Source: an uncultured virus (IMG/VR IMGVR_UViG_3300037418_000253)
Taxonomy: Duplodnaviria; Heunggongvirae; Uroviricota; Caudoviricetes
Reading direction: 5' to 3' (one strand)
Length of the DNA: 64,000 bases
Virus record (IMG/VR): IMGVR_UViG_3300037418_000253
A model generated the notes under the pieces. That model was given only the letters and a program-made list of their open reading frames with translations, had not been told where the DNA came from and searched no databases. Position numbers and translations under genes: made by a program. Below are positions 1 through 58,898 of the stretch, in pieces (within the stretch, counting starts at the first letter, position 1; the number at the start of each line of letters is the position of its first letter).

Positions 1-276
1 ACCCGCGTCCGTTCATTTCAAGCATACAGTCGATGTACAGCCATGTCCATCATTTTAAAGCGTGTCTTGCGAATTACTCAAACTACCGGCCGTTCTGTTC
101 CTAAGTGGCCAACTCGCGTAACTCAGACAGTTACGAGTGCGTACTCAGCGCAAAGCGCCTCGTACTCTGCATCAATGTTATCAGCATTTATTGTTTTGAA
201 CCTGTTTTAGGTCTCTTGCTCAAAGACCGGCTGCGCTCATATACCATTCATCAACGTCGAAACCAATGACTACCCC
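1..276 (-). ncRNA. ssrA: tmRNA (3' end truncated by window edge); tag ORF at 185..123 encodes ADNIDAEYEALCAEYALVTV*
   Basis: Minus strand starts GGGGTAGTCATTGGTTTCGAC (tmRNA-type 5' end) and leaves the window at GGACGCGGGT (start of T-arm). Resume-codon context AATAAAT-GCT; the tag stop codon lies in a hairpin. Confidence 0.9.
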
Positions 277-288
277 AGGATTCGTGCG

Positions 289-360
289 TGCCCTCAACAG
301 GACTCGAACCTGTAATTGAAACTTAGGAGGTTTCCGTGATATCCATTTCACTATAAGGGC
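289..360 (-). tRNA. tRNA-Arg(CCT)
   Basis: Cloverleaf GCCCTTA...TGAGGGC-A; anticodon arm GAAAC-CT CCT AA-GTTTC; T-loop TTCGAGT. Confidence 0.93.
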
Positions 361-365
361 AAAGA

Positions 366-455
366 TGGTTGCTGGGCGTGACCCCTTTGTCTCTGAATCC
401 CGCCGCGAAGGCGCGTCTACCAGGATATACGGAATTTCGCGACCCGCAGGCAACC
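366..455 (-). ncRNA. Putative ~90-nt structured RNA of unknown class
   Basis: 5' GGTTGC pairs with 3' GCAACC-A; internal hairpin CGCG-CCTT-CGCG; occupies a tRNA-sized slot in the array; no T-loop. Confidence 0.4.
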
Positions 456-468
456 GCTGCGTAAAGCT

Positions 469-603
469 TGTAGGAGGGAAGGACTCGAACCTTCCTAGGC
501 GGGCCGCCGCCCTATTAGTCACCATGATAAACGGGAATCGAACCGGACAACGAAACCATTCGCGAGGCAGGAATCGAACCTGCATACCTTTCCGTTCTCC
601 TAC
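469..603 (-). ncRNA. tRNA-like RNA with acceptor stem and three T-loop motifs
   Basis: 7-bp acceptor GTAGGAG/CTCCTAC-A; GCAGG-TTCGATT-CCTGC, GG-TTCGATT-CC and GAAGG-TTCGAGT-CCTTC; no anticodon loop. Confidence 0.7.
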
Positions 604-607
604 AAAG

Positions 608-679
608 TACCCCTACCAGGAGTCGAACCCGGCTCTACGGTTCCGAAGACCGTCGTGTTATCCGATACACTATAAGGGC
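608..679 (-). tRNA. tRNA-Arg(TCG)
   Basis: Cloverleaf; anticodon arm ACGGT-CT TCG GA-ACCGT. Confidence 0.9.
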
Positions 680-680
680 A

Positions 681-1005
681 TGCCCCAGTTTAACGTGTGC
701 TTGGGGGTACCACGAGTTATTTCTGCGACGGAGGTAACTGCCCTCTGGCCATTCCTGTAGGTTTGCGGGCCTCCCGCCTAACTACAGTTAGTCGCTCGTT
801 AAATTTTGCGGTTTGGAGGTGACTAATCTCGACACCGCTATAAGTTCACCAGACATGCTAGCACATGCTTAGTCTCTGGTGCCAAGGCGTTCACGGGCTA
901 TAACCTTGGATTAATCAGCCTGCTAGAGCTGTCCCGTTCCACATTCACAGGCTGGAATCCAGTTCCATTTACTTTCCACCTTCTGAATTCAAGTGGGGAA
1001 TTCAT
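681..1005 (-). ncRNA. Large ornate structured ncRNA (candidate compact GOLLD-like RNA)
   Basis: About 10 stems plus several loop-loop complementarities, lying between two tRNAs; no credible ORF. Confidence 0.65.
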
Positions 1006-1007
1006 AG

Positions 1008-1084
1008 AGGCACTGGAGGGAATCGAACCCTCTAAGGCGAGAAGTTTTGCAGACTTCCGGTGGAAAACCATCCACAACAGCGCC
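1008..1084 (-). tRNA. tRNA-Cys(GCA)
   Basis: GGCGCTG/CAGTGCC-T (U73 Cys determinant); GAAGT-CT GCA AA-ACTTC. Confidence 0.9.
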
Positions 1085-1086
1085 GG

Positions 1087-1159
1087 GGTGACGTACGGGA
1101 GTCGAACCCGCCAAACCTTGGGCCACAACCAAGTGCCTTAACCGCTCGGCTTACGTCAC
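1087..1159 (-). tRNA. tRNA-His(GTG), no encoded G-1
   Basis: GTGACGT/ACGTCAC-C; CTTGG-TT GTG GC-CCAAG. Confidence 0.92.
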
Positions 1160-1161
1160 AG

Positions 1162-1242
1162 TGGGTCAGGGTGGATTTGAACCAACCGTGCAGCGCGTAC
1201 TGCACCTTTTCCGTGACAGCTCTAGAAACTGTCAGCAGACCC
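1162..1242 (-). ncRNA. Atypical D-armless tRNA-like RNA with a CTA (amber) anticodon-like loop
   Basis: GGGTCTG / TGACAGT-TT CTA GA-GCTGTCA / GTGCAG-TACGCG-CTGCAC / GG-TTCAAAT-CC / CTGACCC-A. Confidence 0.65.
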
Positions 1243-1283
1243 ATGAGCCGCGTTTTATTCACCAGAGCGGTCCTAACTGGTCG

Positions 1284-1358
1284 TGCTCCCCCTCGGACTC
1301 GAACCGAGGACCCGCGACTTAAAAGGACGCTGCTCTAAACCAACTGAGCTAGGGGAGC
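1284..1358 (-). tRNA. tRNA-Lys(TTT)
   Basis: Cloverleaf; loop CT TTT AA; T:T mismatch in the anticodon stem. Confidence 0.92.
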
Positions 1359-1380
1359 ATGGCCCGAAGGCCGAATTTCT

Positions 1381-1479
1381 TTATGGATTTAGCATCTTAC
1401 CGCACCCTGCGCAATACGTCGAACCTGCCGGGTTCGGAGAACCACAGTGGCTACAGTAAACTGGACCTGGAGTTGACAT
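1381..1479 (-). CDS. 32-aa zinc-ribbon microprotein (MSTPGPVYCSHCGSPNPAGSTYCAGCGKMLNP)
   Basis: CxxC-x10-CxxC; SD AGGAAGGGAG upstream of the ATG; the longer ORF-track start lies inside tRNA-Tyr. Confidence 0.7.
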   Translation of the reverse strand: MSTPGPVYCSHCGSPNPAGSTYCAGCGKMLNP

Positions 1480-1497
1480 GTTATCTCCCTTCCTGCG

Positions 1498-1578
1498 TGC
1501 GTAAGGAGGGAATCGAACCCCCAGTGCCGAAGCGTCTGATTTACAGTCAGAGGAGCACACCACCTGCTCAACTTACGC
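1498..1578 (-). tRNA. tRNA-Tyr(GTA)
   Basis: TCTGA-CT GTA AA-TCAGA; long variable arm. Confidence 0.92.
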
Positions 1579-1602
1579 ATTGCCCTCGCGGGCTGATATA
1601 GT

Positions 1603-1803
1603 TTAGTTTACCACAGTTCGTTTGGCGTTTGCAAGTGCCTCTCGTCGCTCCCTGGCAACCTCGCCAGCGTGCTTCATCCAGACATCCATAATCCGGACCA
1701 ATTCTTCCGGGGTGATGCCAAGCTCGGCCGCTGCGCGCCTGTCGGTCTCGGTGGGAAACTCGGGCGTGTCAACCCAGCGACCGTCGATTTGGGTAATTGC
1801 CAT
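1603..1803 (-). CDS. hypothetical protein (66 aa)
   Basis: SD GAGGTG; abuts the upstream ORF stop (TAA-ATG). Confidence 0.7.
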   Translation of the reverse strand: MAITQIDGRWVDTPEFPTETDRRAAAELGITPEELVRIMDVWMKHAGEVARERREALANAKRTVVN

Positions 1804-2091
1804 TTAATGCACCTCGTTATTATGTACGACGATGGTTGTGTTGTCAACCACCTCCAGCCGCCGCCAATTTTCGTCAGCCAGCTCCAGAGCTTTCTCGTAG
1901 ACACCCTCATGAACATTGCGGAACAGCAACGCTCGCAACCGCTCGTGCGTCGTCGTGGTCTTCACGGTCTCCGTGTCAACCGGGTGCTCCCGCTCGGGCT
2001 GCTTCCTGCGCCGCAGTTTCGGGACCTTGATATCTCCGAGCTGCTGGACCGTCTCATCGTGCAGGGACATGTTGTGCTGGACTTTGACCAT
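1804..2091 (-). CDS. hypothetical protein (start 2091 or 2070)
   Basis: ORF-track start overlaps tRNA-Phe; ATG 2091 lies 7 nt downstream of TATAAT. Confidence 0.6.
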   Translation of the reverse strand: MVKVQHNMSLHDETVQQLGDIKVPKLRRRKQPEREHPVDTETVKTTTTHERLRALLFRNVHEGVYEKALELADENWRRLEVVDNTTIVVHNNEVH

Positions 2092-2145
2092 GCCCCTGAT
2101 TATATCACGAAACCCCCGCAGGCTTGTACCTACAGGGGTTTCTCG

Positions 2146-2217
2146 TGGGACCAGAGGGAATCGAACCCCCGCGCTCCGGGCTTCAACCGGACGCTCTACC
2201 ATCTGAGCTATGGCCCC
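2146..2217 (-). tRNA. tRNA-Phe(GAA)
   Basis: TCCGG-TT GAA GC-CCGGA; cloverleaf. Confidence 0.93.
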
Positions 2218-2243
2218 AGGTGAGCAGAAGCTCACTTTTTAAG

Positions 2244-2588
2244 TCAAGGTGTTGGGGGAGTCCATTCCCATTCAGGAATCACGTCTGTTCCATCCTGGAG
2301 CAGAGGTGCCTCAGCCAACTTCTGTGCTCCAATTGAAAATGCGGTGAATGGAACATCAACCTCGCATGTTCGTTGCATCACCTTCCAGATGTGCGAACCG
2401 CCCTCATCCACACCATCTTCAAACTGCTTAGAATCCACATTAATTCTAAGACGAATGAAGCCATTATCGAAATCTACCCCGGAAACCTCTACGAAGTTGC
2501 CATATAGAAAAGGACCGGCAACGTTTGTAATGCTACTGAGACTAATGTCAACATACTCATTCGGCTGAATAGAGTCAATGAACGTCAA
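2244..2588 (-). CDS. hypothetical protein (114 aa)
   Basis: TTG start with SD AAGGAG; fills the gap between tRNAs. Confidence 0.65.
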   Translation of the reverse strand: MTFIDSIQPNEYVDISLSSITNVAGPFLYGNFVEVSGVDFDNGFIRLRINVDSKQFEDGVDEGGSHIWKVMQRTCEVDVPFTAFSIGAQKLAEAPLLQDGTDVIPEWEWTPPTP

Positions 2589-2611
2589 ATTTACAACTCC
2601 TTTTAGAAAAG

Positions 2612-2684
2612 TGGCGCAGACGGGATTCGAACCCGTGTTTCTGGGTTATGAGCCCAGCGTGGAACCGAACTCCACTACCGCGCA
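2612..2684 (-). tRNA. tRNA-Met(CAT), initiator-type
   Basis: Three G:C pairs in the anticodon stem (CTGGG-CT CAT AA-CCCAG) and an unpaired 1:72 position. Confidence 0.88.
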
Positions 2685-2685
2685 G

Positions 2686-2757
2686 TAGCGGCTATTGGAT
2701 TTGAACCAATGACTTCTCCCTTATGAGGGGAGCGTTCTACCCCTGAACTAAGCCGCC
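2686..2757 (-). tRNA. tRNA with CAT anticodon (elongator Met, or Ile2)
   Basis: CTCCC-CT CAT AA-GGGAG; cloverleaf. Confidence 0.88.
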
Positions 2758-2774
2758 ATAAATCAATTTGCGCG

Positions 2775-2848
2775 TACCGAAAGCAGGACTCGAACCTGCG
2801 ACCCTGCGACTATAATTCGCGTGCTCTACCTGTCTGAGCTATTTCGGC
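2775..2848 (-). tRNA. tRNA-Ile(TAT)
   Basis: GCGA-AT TAT AG-TCGC anticodon arm; normal D and T arms; A73. Confidence 0.8.
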
Positions 2849-2864
2849 ATGTCGCCAATTATTG

Positions 2865-2938
2865 TACGCCGAGTGGGACTTGAACCCACGACTCACGGAT
2901 TAAGAGTCCGTTGCTCTGGCCAACTGAGCTACCGGCGC
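2865..2938 (-). tRNA. tRNA-Lys(CTT)
   Basis: ACGGA-CT CTT AA-TCCGT. Confidence 0.95.
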
Positions 2939-2951
2939 TTGTTGTCCTTCT

Positions 2952-2981
2952 ATTTTATACAGCCGAAGGACGGGCTGTCAA
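2952..2981 (-). promoter_or_regulatory. sigma70/HrdB-type promoter upstream of a tRNA block
   Basis: TTGACA-N18-TAAAAT. Confidence 0.65.
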
Positions 2982-2990
2982 GCTTATTTA

Positions 2991-3065
2991 TCAGAAGACC
3001 CACATAAGGACTGCGATAAACAGAACTACTAGGATACCGATGACTAGAGCACGCTCTACTGTCAT
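2991..3065 (-). CDS. 24-aa single-TM microprotein (MTVERALVIGILVVLFIAVLMWVF)
   Basis: Strong SD GGGAGGTG; fully hydrophobic; below the ORF-track cutoff. Confidence 0.65.
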   Translation of the reverse strand: MTVERALVIGILVVLFIAVLMWVF

Positions 3066-3097
3066 GTTACCACCTCCCATTTATTTGGGACATAGGG

Positions 3098-3170
3098 TGG
3101 AGAAGAAGGGACTCGAACCCTCAACCTTGTGCTTGCAAAGCACCTGCGCTTCCAATTGCGCCACATCCCC
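3098..3170 (-). tRNA. tRNA-Ala(TGC)
   Basis: G3:U70 pair; loop TT TGC AA. Confidence 0.93.
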
Positions 3171-3185
3171 AACGGAACTTCCTCT

Positions 3186-3215
3186 ATCATAGCAGTCGGT
3201 TCCAGTGTGTGTCAA
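3186..3215 (-). promoter_or_regulatory. sigma70/HrdB-type promoter
   Basis: TTGACA-N18-TATGAT with TG extension. Confidence 0.65.
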
Positions 3216-3229
3216 ATAAACAATAAATC

Positions 3230-3457
3230 TTACGTATCCAGTTCTTCTACGCTGTACTGGGCCTGCACGGCATGCAAGTGGCCCTCACAGATTGGAATGG
3301 GAACGGTCACACCGTCCTCAAGCTCAGCCAGGATTTCTCCCACTGCCTCGTTGGGACACGTCAGTCCATCCTGAATATCCAGTCCACAGAACTGGCGAAT
3401 GGTGACTCCAGGCTGCCCCATCAGGTCAGCCATTTGCTGAAAATCAGAACTCATCAC
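3230..3457 (-). CDS. hypothetical protein, Cys/His motif
   Basis: ORF track; overlaps the upstream small ORF. Confidence 0.65.
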   Translation of the reverse strand: MMSSDFQQMADLMGQPGVTIRQFCGLDIQDGLTCPNEAVGEILAELEDGVTVPIPICEGHLHAVQAQYSVEELDT

Positions 3458-5430: not shown

Positions 5431-5438
5431 AAACCTAT

Positions 5439-5693
5439 TTAGTCGATGAACTCCTCGCCCATCTCCGTGACGGAAAATACCATCTCAAGGGTGTCTGGGT
5501 CAATATCCCATTCCAGGTAGCCTTGCTCCACCGCGTCAAAAATCGCAGTCTCGCAAGCGTTCCTGTCAGCCCAGTACACCTCGGGAGCAAGCTCCTTGGC
5601 CATCGGCACGTTGAGCGAATAAAGCGGCTCGCCTGCCTCATCGACCCCCGAGACCTCGTAGACACCCATCTCGATGAGGGTTTCTAGGTCCAC
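5439..5693 (-). CDS. acidic hypothetical protein (84 aa)
   Basis: GTG start with SD AAGGAG. Confidence 0.75.
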   Translation of the reverse strand: MDLETLIEMGVYEVSGVDEAGEPLYSLNVPMAKELAPEVYWADRNACETAIFDAVEQGYLEWDIDPDTLEMVFSVTEMGEEFID

Positions 5694-5759
5694 CGTTTTT
5701 CTCCTTGGTCAAGAAGAGACCCGCAGAATTTCTCCACGGGCCTCTTGTTGTACGTAACG

Positions 5760-57890: not shown

Positions 57891-58898
57891 TTACGGAGCA
57901 ACCTTGACGTTCTTTACAACGACGAAAGCGTCTGCGTTCTCAATCTGTGTACCAACGCGGCAGTACATGGTGTACTCGATGGTGTCCTTCTTTGGCTTGA
58001 ACTCGCGGTAGACCTGAATCTCACGCTTTACGCCCCATAGAAGGTTCTGTGGGAAGGTCAGCCATAGGTCACCGTGCTGTCCTGTTGGGGACGCGTAGTC
58101 ACCAACCATGGTCTCGTCAAAGAGTGGAACCTCCTGTAGAGCAACACCGAAGATGCTTGGACCGTTGAATCCCGCATTACCCTCGGTGCGAACACCGTTC
58201 TGGGTGATGCCCTGGGCAACCTGCTCTAGGCTAATGATTCCAGATGCGGACTGGGTTAGTCCGTACATGTAATCCTGGATTAGGTTAGAGCCCGCGAAGA
58301 ACTTAAGTCCGTTACGACGCTGCATGTACTTTCGAGGCATAGCCTTGAGAGCCCTGTTCGCAACGCCACGGGTAAGTCCACCGGTGCTTGCACCAGACTG
58401 GTTGTCAACGACGTGTCCACCAGCGAGGGCCAGCTTGCGCCAACCGTCGAATGCCTTTAGGAGAGGGTCAGTCGTCTTAGCAGTGTCACCATTGATTGCA
58501 ACGTCCTCAAGGTCGTTACCAGCCTGCGTTGCCATAAGGCGCGCAATGTGGTCCTCAAGAGCCTCACCCTCAAGGTTGTCCTCTAGGGACTCCGTTGAAA
58601 GCTCGAAGTCAAGACGCAACTTCTTGGTCGTTAGCGAAATCTTCGTGAATACTGCACCAGCGTTGACGCCATCATCGACAGCCTCGGTAGCCACACGCAT
58701 TAGGCGCTGACCAACACCAATCTTGTCAATATCCTGCTGCGTCGAACGCATACGGATGGTACGGACCTGGGAACCAAGTACGGTCGCATCCCACATGTAG
58801 TCGATGAAGCGGTTTGCCTGCTCGGGGTTGAGAAGACCACCACCACCGGAACCAACCTCGGTGGTACGGATTACCTTCTCTAGTAGTTCATTACTCAT
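57891..58898 (-). CDS. major capsid protein (HK97 fold)
   Basis: GGLLNPEQ..FI, S.E.LEDN, INGD motifs; strong SD GGAGGTGA. Confidence 0.9.
   Translation of the reverse strand: MSNELLEKVIRTTEVGSGGGGLLNPEQANRFIDYMWDATVLGSQVRTIRMRSTQQDIDKIGVGQRLMRVATEAVDDGVNAGAVFTKISLTTKKLRLDFELSTESLEDNLEGEALEDHIARLMATQAGNDLEDVAINGDTAKTTDPLLKAFDGWRKLALAGGHVVDNQSGASTGGLTRGVANRALKAMPRKYMQRRNGLKFFAGSNLIQDYMYGLTQSASGIISLEQVAQGITQNGVRTEGNAGFNGPSIFGVALQEVPLFDETMVGDYASPTGQHGDLWLTFPQNLLWGVKREIQVYREFKPKKDTIEYTMYCRVGTQIENADAFVVVKNVKVAP

Follow-up and report, generated by a model that had tools for sequence, protein, structure and literature searches.

What are the RNA genes at the beginning of this stretch of phage DNA, and do they work as one system or as several? 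The window (the whole 64-kb stretch analysed) is, to judge from its sequence, from a Streptomyces phage, kin of BillNye, Byblos and Ankus (Stanwilliamsviridae). Every RNA gene within positions 1-1242 is encoded by the minus strand, in an order that mixes four ordinary tRNAs with a phage tmRNA and four folded RNAs (Table 1). This segment would represent the downstream end of a minus-strand tRNA operon in a soil phage of the Stanwilliamsviridae kind. The sequence-only reading had placed five unusual elements and four tRNAs here, and they are found at those places on the minus strand (by ARAGORN in the case of the tRNAs); it had gone on to take the unusual elements as co-processed, functional RNAs of a candidate RNA-only system.

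The spacers are as short as had been claimed, 0-11 nt across the stretch, with the exception of 40 nt before the 81-nt element with the anticodon-like triplet CUA (CUA element). The T-loop motif GGTTCRANTCC occurs 24 times in the window, always on the minus strand, versus 0.34 occurrences expected; 20 of the 24 are inside called tRNAs, and each of the 4 orphans falls within 1-1242. For tRNA-Cys (1007-1084) there is nothing at Rfam gathering scores, and the top match in an Rfam E-value scan is tRNA-Sec (34.4 bits), under the tRNA-Sec gathering score. The promoter-like site at 1847-1819 is the closest such site upstream of the stretch, and a pattern scan finds no terminator-like site on the minus strand within 1-3300. 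Within this phage group tRNA arrays are mosaic, with blocks replaced and deleted between close relatives.

Table 1. RNA genes and the upstream promoter-like site, by position in the window
Feature	Positions	Strand	Evidence
Phage tmRNA, 5' 276 nt	1-276	-	Rfam RF00023, E 1e-13; tag shared with BillNye
tRNA-Arg (CCU)	288-360	-	ARAGORN; Rfam tRNA, 63.8 bits
95-nt structured RNA	367-461	-	7-phage alignment, RNAalifold, shuffles
135-nt tRNA-shaped RNA with three T-arm hairpins	469-603	-	T-loop motifs, homologues, covariation
tRNA-Arg (UCG)	607-679	-	ARAGORN; Rfam tRNA, 56.2 bits
327-nt RNA, 3' domain: three-way junction and terminal hairpin, conserved loop ACACGUUAAAC	680-806	-	RNAalifold
327-nt RNA, 125-nt core	813-937	-	Alignments, stem finding, model R1
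327-nt RNA, 5' domain: hairpin (loop CCCACUU, potentially pairing with AAGGUGG downstream) followed by another hairpin	938-1006	-	Read from alignment by eye
tRNA-Cys (GCA)	1007-1084	-	ARAGORN
tRNA-His (GUG)	1085-1159	-	ARAGORN; Rfam tRNA, 51.7 bits
81-nt tRNA-like RNA without D arm (CUA element)	1162-1242	-	Alignment with Byblos and Ankus
Promoter-like site (TTGACA, 17 nt, CATAAT)	1819-1847	-	Consensus scan, 11/12 matches; pattern match only

The tmRNA can be set apart at once. Rfam RF00023 matches 1-276 (E 1e-13, 39.8 bits, model positions 1-352 of 374). Because the window edge cuts the 3' end, the match does not reach the gathering score of 47; the last ~20 nt fall beyond the window start. 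The complete tmRNA of BillNye is 296 nt (ARAGORN), complete copies in three relatives are 293-296 nt, and identity to the BillNye, Byblos and Ankus copies is 78.8-91.4%. The tag frame (123-185, minus strand) encodes ADNIDAEYEALCAEYALVTV and then a stop, identical to the BillNye tag (ARAGORN and GenBank); tags end in LVTV in the BillNye type and in ALAA in the Belfort type. Genome announcements of cluster BE Streptomyces phages give one tmRNA per genome (PMC5764925, PMC13191466). The RNA at 1-276 is this same RNA, the sole difference being that it is cut by the window; what had been read as a new variant of tmRNA is already annotated in relatives.

The ~325-nt pseudoknotted RNA of the earlier reading corresponds to a covarying, multi-domain RNA of 327 nt at 680-1006. 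Its 125-nt core contains, from 5' to 3', strand a (CGGG), H1 (loop CUAGCA), b, a' (CCCG), b', c, d (GACUA), H2 (loop UGCUAG), c', and H3, whose loop carries d' (UAGUC). These parts make up two pseudoknots plus two perfectly complementary hexaloops (CUAGCA and UGCUAG). A model of the core (R1) gives 106.4 bits for the window core, which is present in a single copy in the window. Matches are found in 79 phage records, every one of the 79 a Streptomyces phage, and among the 60 of these 79 matches listed, 55 have no annotation underneath. The core also occurs in 23 IMG/VR contigs, where all 23 pattern-found loci score 66-118 bits. Among relatives, it is present in all 23 loci examined and always lies between two tRNA genes. 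The first pattern used required 25-55 nt between two anchors, a distance that is ~22 nt in Loccivirinae-type cores, so that these could not be found by it; 8 of its 25 IMG/VR loci are real as judged by the model. In bacterial and archaeal genomes, with exact anchors and the 25-55 nt spacing, none of 11 pattern loci is real by the model.

Alignment of all 23 cores with MAFFT put several stems out of register; thus, per-sequence stem finding, sub-family alignments and a model-fitted alignment were used instead, the last of which included one noise row (window 58280-58306, 9 bits, mostly gaps). Helices H1, b, c, d and H2 are kept in 23/23 loci, in 10, 12, 14, 7 and 7 distinct complementary versions, respectively. 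Pairing reaches 97.6% (9 sequences), 89.2% (14) and 89.5% (23), with 25-42% in slid controls, percentages that are favoured by the choice of the structure strings as the best stems from the same sequences. The corresponding covariation scores are 0.244, 0.296 and 0.372 versus 0.100, 0.133 and 0.136 for shuffles (0/500 reach the observed scores), the sequences being those of related phages and the shuffle control one that ignores relatedness. Five core helices covary, including the pseudoknot pairing d/d', in which UA changes to CG in 4 sequences and GC to UA in 2. The first pseudoknot (CGGG:CCCG) and the hexaloop pairing are invariant, so it is complementarity that speaks for them; the invariant, complementary hexaloops are a hint of possible RNA-RNA contacts. 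G.U pairs are frequent (one H1 pair is UG in 18/22), and because of them the strand fits minus only. For the 3' domain, RNAalifold (10 phages) predicts 25 pairs; compensatory change is seen in 19 of them.

The element that had been described as a 90-nt, end-paired RNA is real and paired, but its size is 95 nt (367-461). It contains a first hairpin, looped by CGGUUGC, then a long bulged stem under a CGCG hairpin, and a 3' hairpin. Loop residues GGUUGC are complementary to a 3' GCAACC and can form with it a pseudoknot whose strands co-change in Belfort and Gilson (GGUUGA:UCAACC). Across 7 phages, 97.1% of the cells are paired (30.8-49.4% when slid), RNAalifold finds compensatory change in 10 of about 25-26 pairs, and the covariation score is reached by 0/500 shuffles. 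The RNA is present in 7 of the 9 stretches that span tmRNA to tRNA-Tyr.

The triple-T-loop RNA is likewise confirmed, with GGTTCRANTCC motifs at 481, 534 and 570. In this 135-nt RNA a 7-bp closing stem (GUAGGAG/CUCCUAC) surrounds a G+C hairpin, a small UGG hairpin and three hairpins that resemble T arms, with T loops at 570-580, 534-544 and 481-491, and both the D-arm and the anticodon-arm places are occupied by T-arm copies. On its predicted fold it is an unusually explicit tRNA mimic. It has no match to Rfam RF00005 at E≤10 over 461-606 and no default ARAGORN call; for this RNA and the CUA element, in both of which the acceptor stem stacks on a T arm of loop GGUUCRANUCC, ARAGORN makes calls, and conflicting ones, only when its thresholds are lowered or mitochondrial mode is chosen. 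A blastn search with 461-606 yields no match in the phage collection. The first homologue was found through a Belfort tRNA-Ser call that holds T-loop motifs, and the others by searching with the Belfort copy, which matches 26 phage records (5 of the 26 labelled tRNA-Ser). Belfort, Moab, TunaTartare, NootNoot and Faust carry homologues. Pairing in the T stems amounts to 95.6%, with a covariation score that 0/500 shuffles reach, and the closing stems differ in sequence while complementarity is kept in 6/6. Among relatives the position of the element varies, or the element is absent.

The D-armless, tRNA-like RNA with CUA at the anticodon position also holds up. A 7-bp acceptor stem (one U.U) is followed after 2 nt, with no D arm between, by a 6-bp anticodon-like stem that bears UUCUAGA as its loop; a T arm (one U.C) and a long extra arm complete the fold. 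With three sequences available, 91.7% of positions pair (29.2-47.2% when slid) and 2 pairs are compensatory, a level equalled by 63/500 shuffles. There is no match to RF00005 at E≤10 over 1160-1282 and no default ARAGORN call. The element is found in 3 other phage records only, and pattern scans of IMG/VR and of metagenome contigs give no further example; a looser pattern yields 7 candidates, none of them homologous by reading, which resemble other tRNA or tmRNA ends. The 9/3 or 8/4 "allo-tRNA" fold (PMC5389517) was checked by hand and rejected, since the 5' strand does not pair. A near-identical strain is without the CUA element, and for this reason the element appears dispensable.

Single-sequence folding energies are no better than those of shuffles (z +0.25, -1.68, -1.34 and -0.84), and support for these folds is comparative. 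The sequence-only reading had proposed an Infernal/Rfam scan and a search for compensatory changes. In the scan (Rfam 15, 1-3300), 1-276 is the tmRNA, and the 95-nt, 135-nt, 327-nt and 81-nt RNAs have no match at E≤10. The alignments show conservation and compensatory changes on the minus strand for the first three of these RNAs, and lend weak compensatory support to the CUA element. A literature search, with few subscription journals covered, gives no description of the four RNAs, and papers naming Stanwilliamsviridae include none on non-coding RNAs by title or abstract. Thus, the four conserved, folded RNAs are uncatalogued, and the tmRNA is already known.

Comparison of the relatives shows a constant placement of the four RNAs between tRNA genes. 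Their distribution is another matter: the core is present in 23/23 loci, the 95-nt RNA in 7/9 stretches, the three-T-arm RNA variably, and the CUA element in 3 other records. Because the elements occur independently, they look like separate modules and not like one system. What survives of the earlier reading is therefore that these RNAs are conserved, constrained in structure, neither junk spacers nor protein genes, and sited where tRNA processing would release them; the single RNA-only system does not. Our overall reading, to which we give a probability of roughly 0.7, is that they represent four separate non-coding RNA genes interspersed with the tRNAs and tmRNA of a phage operon. The four would be transcribed together with the tRNAs from a promoter upstream and released by RNase P and 3' tRNA-processing enzymes, after which knots and closed ends would keep them stable as small RNAs. 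Among the listed sequencing runs that contain 300-1300, none is recorded as RNA, and the four examined are DNA contigs. A decoy or scaffold role is a guess. The T-arm RNAs may pass as tRNA with factors of the host or the phage that recognize the acceptor/T arm or the elbow, and the knotted core may serve as a scaffold that binds protein, or may pair with itself through its complementary hexaloops; that both ideas hold, mimicry and scaffold being the work of independent modules, is a guess at odds well short of even.

The elements might instead act only in cis, as structured spacers that govern in which order, or how efficiently, tRNA precursors are processed, or that shield the polycistronic transcript from exonucleases, and do nothing after cleavage. 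They are flush with tRNAs, modules are swapped or lost between close relatives, and pseudoknots and closed ends do resist exonucleases. However, the invariant loops (CUAGCA, UGCUAG and AUCCUGGUA) and the multi-domain architecture are kept in two subfamilies, which exceeds the needs of a spacer, and many tRNA pairs of the same array abut at 0-1 nt with no spacer between them. We consider a purely cis-acting role rather unlikely.

A bolder version of the preferred reading would see at least four uncatalogued RNA families as a toolkit, in which the hexaloops of the core pair between molecules and build an RNA-only assembly akin, on a small scale, to the ROOL/GOLLD cages and the three-T-arm RNA is a decoy for a host factor or defence nuclease that recognizes the T arm or elbow; we regard this as unlikely. 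ROOL RNAs are ~580 nt. GOLLD and ROOL RNAs are described (PMC12286853) as RNAs of phages and prophages that often lie near tRNA islands, and as being pseudoknot-rich, with kissing loops and a function that is unknown; many GOLLD RNAs exceed 800 nt. The 327-nt RNA is also phage-encoded, pseudoknotted and situated between tRNA genes (23/23 loci), but it is far smaller (a 125-nt core in an element that is 172-431 nt long across relatives), and its fold is unrelated. The GOLLD (RF02032) and ROOL models give no match at gathering score over the 64 kb, and none at E≤10 over 1-3300.

Other small RNAs offer looser parallels. YrlA RNAs (bacterial Y RNA-like RNAs with a tRNA-like module) imitate the T arm of tRNA but do not decode, a trait they would share with the T-arm-bearing RNAs of the window. 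In the Rfam scan of 1-3300, YrlA appears only at 2800-2914, over two ordinary tRNAs (28 bits versus a gathering score of 69), and has no match to the 95-nt, 135-nt, 327-nt or 81-nt RNAs. RNAC and RNAD of T4 ("species 1 and 2", small stable RNAs) sit in the T4 tRNA gene cluster. They are expressed small phage RNAs, detectable by Northern blot and with unknown function (PMC9697503). The RNAs of the window occupy the same genomic niche in another phage group and host.

The three-T-arm RNA and the CUA element could also be decaying tRNA genes, functionless debris of recombination in mosaic arrays with replaced and deleted blocks. The likeness of the three-T-arm RNA to real tRNAs is confined to its T arms, and the second T stem of the window copy has one C.C mismatch; the CUA element has its two stem mismatches, lacks the D arm, and is absent from the near-identical strain. 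Yet the three-T-arm architecture is common to the window and the five further phages, from both subfamilies, with conserved linkers and with the compensatory changes in closing stem and T stems noted above, and in a soil-metagenome contig (X4) 533 G>C restores the pair in the second T stem. The CUA element, in the alignment with Byblos and Ankus, is much better kept than the adjoining 40-nt spacer. Decay is thus distinctly unlikely as an account of either RNA.

Phages are known to carry suppressor tRNAs, and the CUA element might be a working amber suppressor that reads through UAG. Its 7-nt loop carries U33 and, at 34-36, CUA; its acceptor stem has A73, and its T arm is accompanied by a long extra arm of the class II type. 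In keeping the acceptor, anticodon-like and T arms while lacking a D arm, and in having CUA at the anticodon position, it recalls D-armless mitochondrial tRNAs and phage suppressor tRNAs. Against this, it lacks a D arm and is unrecognized by default ARAGORN or the Rfam tRNA model, and no use of D-armless tRNAs in bacterial translation is known. In addition, position 37 is a G, which is unusual in tRNAs reading U-starting codons. The CUA itself may be incidental, since the loop sequence UCUAGA is palindromic and CUAG is common to both core hexaloops. Finally, unlike what a suppressor would lead one to expect, nothing in this phage points to recoding of UAG, which serves as an ordinary stop (13/57 long ORFs end in TAG): ORF coverage is 57,584 versus 53,722 with TAG read through, in effect no more than for TGA (57,322) or TAA (57,398). 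A suppressor function is very unlikely.

HDV-like theta ribozymes of gut phages, which trim tRNA 3' ends, suggest a further comparison, in which the 327-nt RNA would be a self-cleaving ribozyme that trims the upstream tRNA. It has nested pseudoknots and begins directly after tRNA-Cys (after tRNA-Ala in the other subfamily). However, a match to any Rfam ribozyme family at E≤10 is lacking, 37-87 nt separate the tRNA from the start of the conserved core, and the junction sequence differs between the subfamilies. A ribozyme is highly improbable. That the stretches encode small proteins, as when the records of Wakanda and Muntaha place a hypothetical protein within the 327-nt element and that of Gilson a CDS at the place of the Belfort three-T-arm RNA, is scarcely credible: indels do not come in threes, covarying stems are interleaved with conserved blocks, the CDS of Wakanda runs on the other strand, and in the window five ORFs of 76-131 aa, chosen from the listed frames, all overlap tRNA genes and match no Pfam family, which agrees with the earlier claim of no credible protein gene.

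Folded RNAs of unknown function recur inside phage tRNA arrays, as with T4 RNAC/RNAD, GOLLD and ROOL, most of the newer cases coming from phages that are not in culture. Here, dozens of Streptomyces phages that have been isolated and sequenced, and that form plaques on laboratory strains, carry the families in question; since related RNAs are present in so many cultured phages, their role is open to bench testing at once, and the three-T-arm RNA could reveal which tRNA-recognizing factor matters in infection. As a matter of annotation, these RNAs underlie some of the calls made in this phage group as "tRNA-Ser" or as a small "hypothetical protein", which can be corrected.

A blastn search with window positions 1-1300 matches 100 GenBank phage records, 95 of which are Streptomyces phages. 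The best matches are Byblos, DekoNeimoidia, BillNye, Circinus, and Ankus (coverage 51-62%, identity 77-85%), all Stanwilliamsviridae (actinobacteriophage cluster BE) with genomes of 120-135 kb, and the stretch is also present in soil and rhizosphere metagenome runs. Published accounts of this family and cluster describe ~32-48 tRNA genes plus one tmRNA (PMC5764925; PMC13191466; preprint 10.1101/2024.02.16.580700). Within the 64-kb window ARAGORN identifies 21 tRNA genes, all on the minus strand, and at the downstream end of this array the RNAs run 5' to 3' as Tyr, Lys-UUU, element 5, His, Cys, element 4, Arg-UCG, element 3, element 2, Arg-CCU, and tmRNA. Gaps of 138 (1359-1496), 156 (2939-3094), and 328 nt (5431-5758) lie between further tRNA genes of the same array.

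RNA features at the downstream end of the tRNA array
Feature	Position	Strand	Basis or content
Element 1, tmRNA	1-276	-	Rfam tmRNA model, E 1e-13; 3' end beyond window edge
tmRNA tag frame	123-185	-	reads ADNIDAEYEALCAEYALVTV*
Element 2, 95-nt RNA	367-461	-	homologues, covariation
Element 3, three-T-arm RNA	469-603	-	T-loop motifs, fold, homologues
Element 4, 327-nt RNA	680-1006	-	homologues, covariation
Element 4 shared core, ~120 nt	813-937	-	alignments
Element 5, CUA tRNA look-alike	1162-1242	-	alignment with relatives

The sequence-only reading saw RNA elements set within this array, which is confirmed, and took them for functional RNAs; by conservation, covariation (weak for element 5), and, for element 4, a fixed position between tRNA genes, they do look functional. 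The decoy or scaffold roles it proposed are speculative. Element 4 matches 79 records, every one a Streptomyces phage; among the 60 matches listed, 55 overlap no annotated feature, 3 are annotated as "hypothetical protein," and the other 2 are in records that carry no annotation. In each of the 22 relatives compared it occupies the space from one tRNA gene to the next, following tRNA-Cys in Loccivirinae (231-431 nt) and, in Boydwoodruffvirinae (171-249 nt), tRNA-Ala-GGC, with tRNA-Lys-CUU on its other side. It has no Rfam 15 match at E<=10. Read from alignments, the shared core is ordered a (CGGG), H1 (loop CUAGCA), b, a' (CCCG), b', c, d (GACUA), H2 (loop UGCUAG), c', and H3, a hairpin whose 7-nt loop contains d' (UAGUC). 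Since a/a' is interleaved with b/b' and d/d' crosses c/c', the core is predicted to form two pseudoknots; in addition, the two hexaloops are exact complements of each other. When a script picked the best stem per place in each of 23 sequences, all five variable helices were present in 23/23, with 10 distinct complementary versions of H1, 12 of b, 14 of c, 7 of d, and 7 of H2.

Pairing and covariation in the element 4 core (structure strings were derived from the same sequences, the model-fitted alignment is biased to its model, and the phages are related)
Alignment	n	Cells paired	Covariation	Shuffled	Shuffles reaching	Slid controls
Boydwoodruffvirinae	9	97.6%	0.244	0.100	0/500	24.9-40.2%
Loccivirinae	14	89.2%	0.296	0.133	0/500	30.1-41.8%
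Model-fitted, all	23	89.5%	0.372	0.136	0/500	31.7-41.8%

With the same reservations, changes on both sides occur in 18 pairs of the Loccivirinae alignment (11.0 when shuffled) and in 122 cells of the model-fitted one (37.0 when shuffled). The d/d' pairing covaries in the Boydwoodruffvirinae alignment (n=9). The a/a' pairing and the hexaloops are invariant in all alignments, and complementarity is thus what argues for these contacts. Outside the core, the 3' domain (680-806) consists of a three-way junction and a terminal hairpin, and across 10 phages 19 of its 25 pairs show compensatory change; the fold of the 5' domain was read by eye. R1, a model of the core, finds a single copy in the 64 kb. 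A correctly spaced pattern locates 23 loci in IMG/VR, on contigs of 18.7-135.6 kb, all of which score 66-118 bits. An earlier, wrongly spaced pattern gave 8 true loci out of 25 in IMG/VR and 0 out of 11 in bacterial and archaeal genomes, the latter being a weak negative because of that spacing. The region of the 327-nt RNA contains "hypothetical protein" features in Wakanda (sequence L004, 2199-2330, plus strand, opposite to the RNA) and Muntaha; these features probably cover RNAs.

Element 2 is conserved in BillNye, Byblos, Ankus, Wakanda, Belfort, and Gilson; a motif test finds it missing from Annadreamy and Blueeyedbeauty. A tRNA-Arg follows closely in the window and in all of these relatives but Wakanda, where ~110 nt intervene. 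The RNAalifold structure has 26 pairs, of which 10 are compensatory; 97.1% of cells pair, versus 30.8-49.4% in slid controls, and 10 pairs change on both sides, versus 4.0 after shuffling (0/500 shuffles). GGUUGC, in the 7-nt loop of the first hairpin, has its complement, GCAACC, at the 3' end. The Belfort and Gilson copies have loop and partner altered jointly (GGUUGA with UCAACC), one event that favours a pseudoknot.

Element 3 is marked by its T loops. The window has 24 copies of the motif GGTTCRANTCC where 0.34 would be expected, every one of them on the minus strand; 20 copies are inside tRNAs and 3 of the 4 orphans are inside element 3, where a 7-bp closing stem adjoins the third T arm in a tRNA-like placement. 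The window copy finds no relative by blastn. A "tRNA-Ser(cga)" of Belfort is part of a 135-nt RNA of the same plan, and this copy as query matches 26 records, of which 5 bear a tRNA-Ser annotation at the match and 21 bear none. Copies from Moab, TunaTartare, NootNoot, Faust, and Belfort can be aligned with that of the window. Pairing in the three T stems reaches 95.6%, and their covariation is 0.364 versus 0.073 shuffled (0/500); 35 of 500 shuffles reach the count of pairs changed on both sides. The closing stems differ in every copy and are complementary in every copy. One metagenome contig, 99% similar to the window, has a single base change that makes the mismatched second T stem pair perfectly. 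The slot of element 3 varies from phage to phage, and Blueeyedbeauty has a two-T-arm version. The tRNA-Ser(cga) features of Belfort (L006, 1437-1518), Comrade, SparkleGoddess, and Karp, each a piece of such an RNA, probably cover the three-T-arm RNA. Boydwoodruffvirinae phages carry a further ~120-nt RNA between two tRNA-Lys genes (sequences L012, 505-622; L013, 434-556; L014, 208-331); as read from folds, it has a T-loop hairpin within a long stem and flanking hairpins that vary compensatorily.

Relatives of element 5 are found only in Byblos, DekoNeimoidia, and Ankus, and scans of IMG/VR and metagenome contigs added none. The loop UUCUAGA is invariant; there is one compensatory change in the anticodon-like stem and one in the long extra arm, and one acceptor-stem and one T-stem mismatch are present in 3/3 sequences. 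Pairing reaches 91.7% (slid controls, 29.2-47.2%), but 63 of 500 shuffles do as well (n=3), so the shuffle control is not passed. Element 5 is dispensable, since a near-identical metagenome strain joins tRNA-His directly to tRNA-Lys, as do BillNye and Wakanda. UAG is an ordinary stop in the window. Because CUAG is common to the element 5 loop and both core hexaloops, the "anticodon" may be a pairing rather than a decoding motif. Annadreamy has, in the slot of element 5, an 87-nt tRNA-shaped RNA between tRNA-His and tRNA-Tyr (L005, 2475-2561), whose acceptor stem has 8 bp and which also has a T arm and a 4-bp stem; the loop of the latter, CUGUAAA, puts GUA at the anticodon position. This RNA is not among the ARAGORN calls.

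Element 1 had been taken for a variant tmRNA, which is wrong: ARAGORN reads an identical tag in the complete, GenBank-annotated 296-nt tmRNA of BillNye, and the element is a known gene of this phage group. The tag ends in ...ALVTV in the window, BillNye, Byblos, and Ankus, and in ...YALAA, the usual protease-tag ending, in Belfort-type phages (Belfort tmRNA, L006 1011-1288). Judged from these endings, rescued proteins may fare differently depending on which of the two tag types they receive. Directly upstream of the tmRNA, a ~90-nt conserved element (…ACAAGACACGGGGGCUUGGCCCGUCC…GUUAACGGGCCUGCCA) is present in Belfort (L006, 1289-1380), Gilson (L007, ~930-1019), and Ankus (L003, ~1776-1865); the window has merely 11 nt at this site. 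The Gilson record places a "hypothetical protein" CDS immediately upstream of this element, at the opposite end of the gap.

Elements 2-5 match no Rfam family, and no description of them was found in the literature. They share their genomic niche with ROOL and GOLLD, phage/prophage RNAs of unknown function, often near tRNA islands, that form cages via kissing loops (PMC12286853), and likewise with T4 RNAC and RNAD, expressed RNAs of unknown function (PMC9697503).

All elements and tRNAs of the stretch have a common strand, with 0-40 nt between neighbours. Upstream, at 1847-1819, there is a strong promoter-like site, and the minus strand of 1-3300 has no terminator-like site. Co-transcription and the release of RNAs by tRNA processing are established for tRNA operons; on this basis, the elements would be transcribed together with the tRNAs and freed by tRNA processing. 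The proposal that they make up one RNA-only system is not supported. Modules come and go independently among relatives, and we therefore read the elements as distinct RNA genes in a common niche.

The tRNA array is a mosaic, reshuffled among close relatives. In contigs of the metagenome run X3, 470-711 and 1010-1240 are swapped for 240 and 504 unrelated letters. The tRNA-His and tRNA-Cys genes abut in the window (0 nt apart), and a gene is inserted there in Patelgo (HNH endonuclease; L009, 963-1382) and Kenrey (small CDS; L022, 947-1111). The tRNA names of Sham (L011, ON645339.1) treat the anticodon as a codon, giving tRNA-Ala(gca), tRNA-Val(gtg), and tRNA-Ser(tcg) where relatives have Cys, His, and Arg, which is probably an annotation slip.
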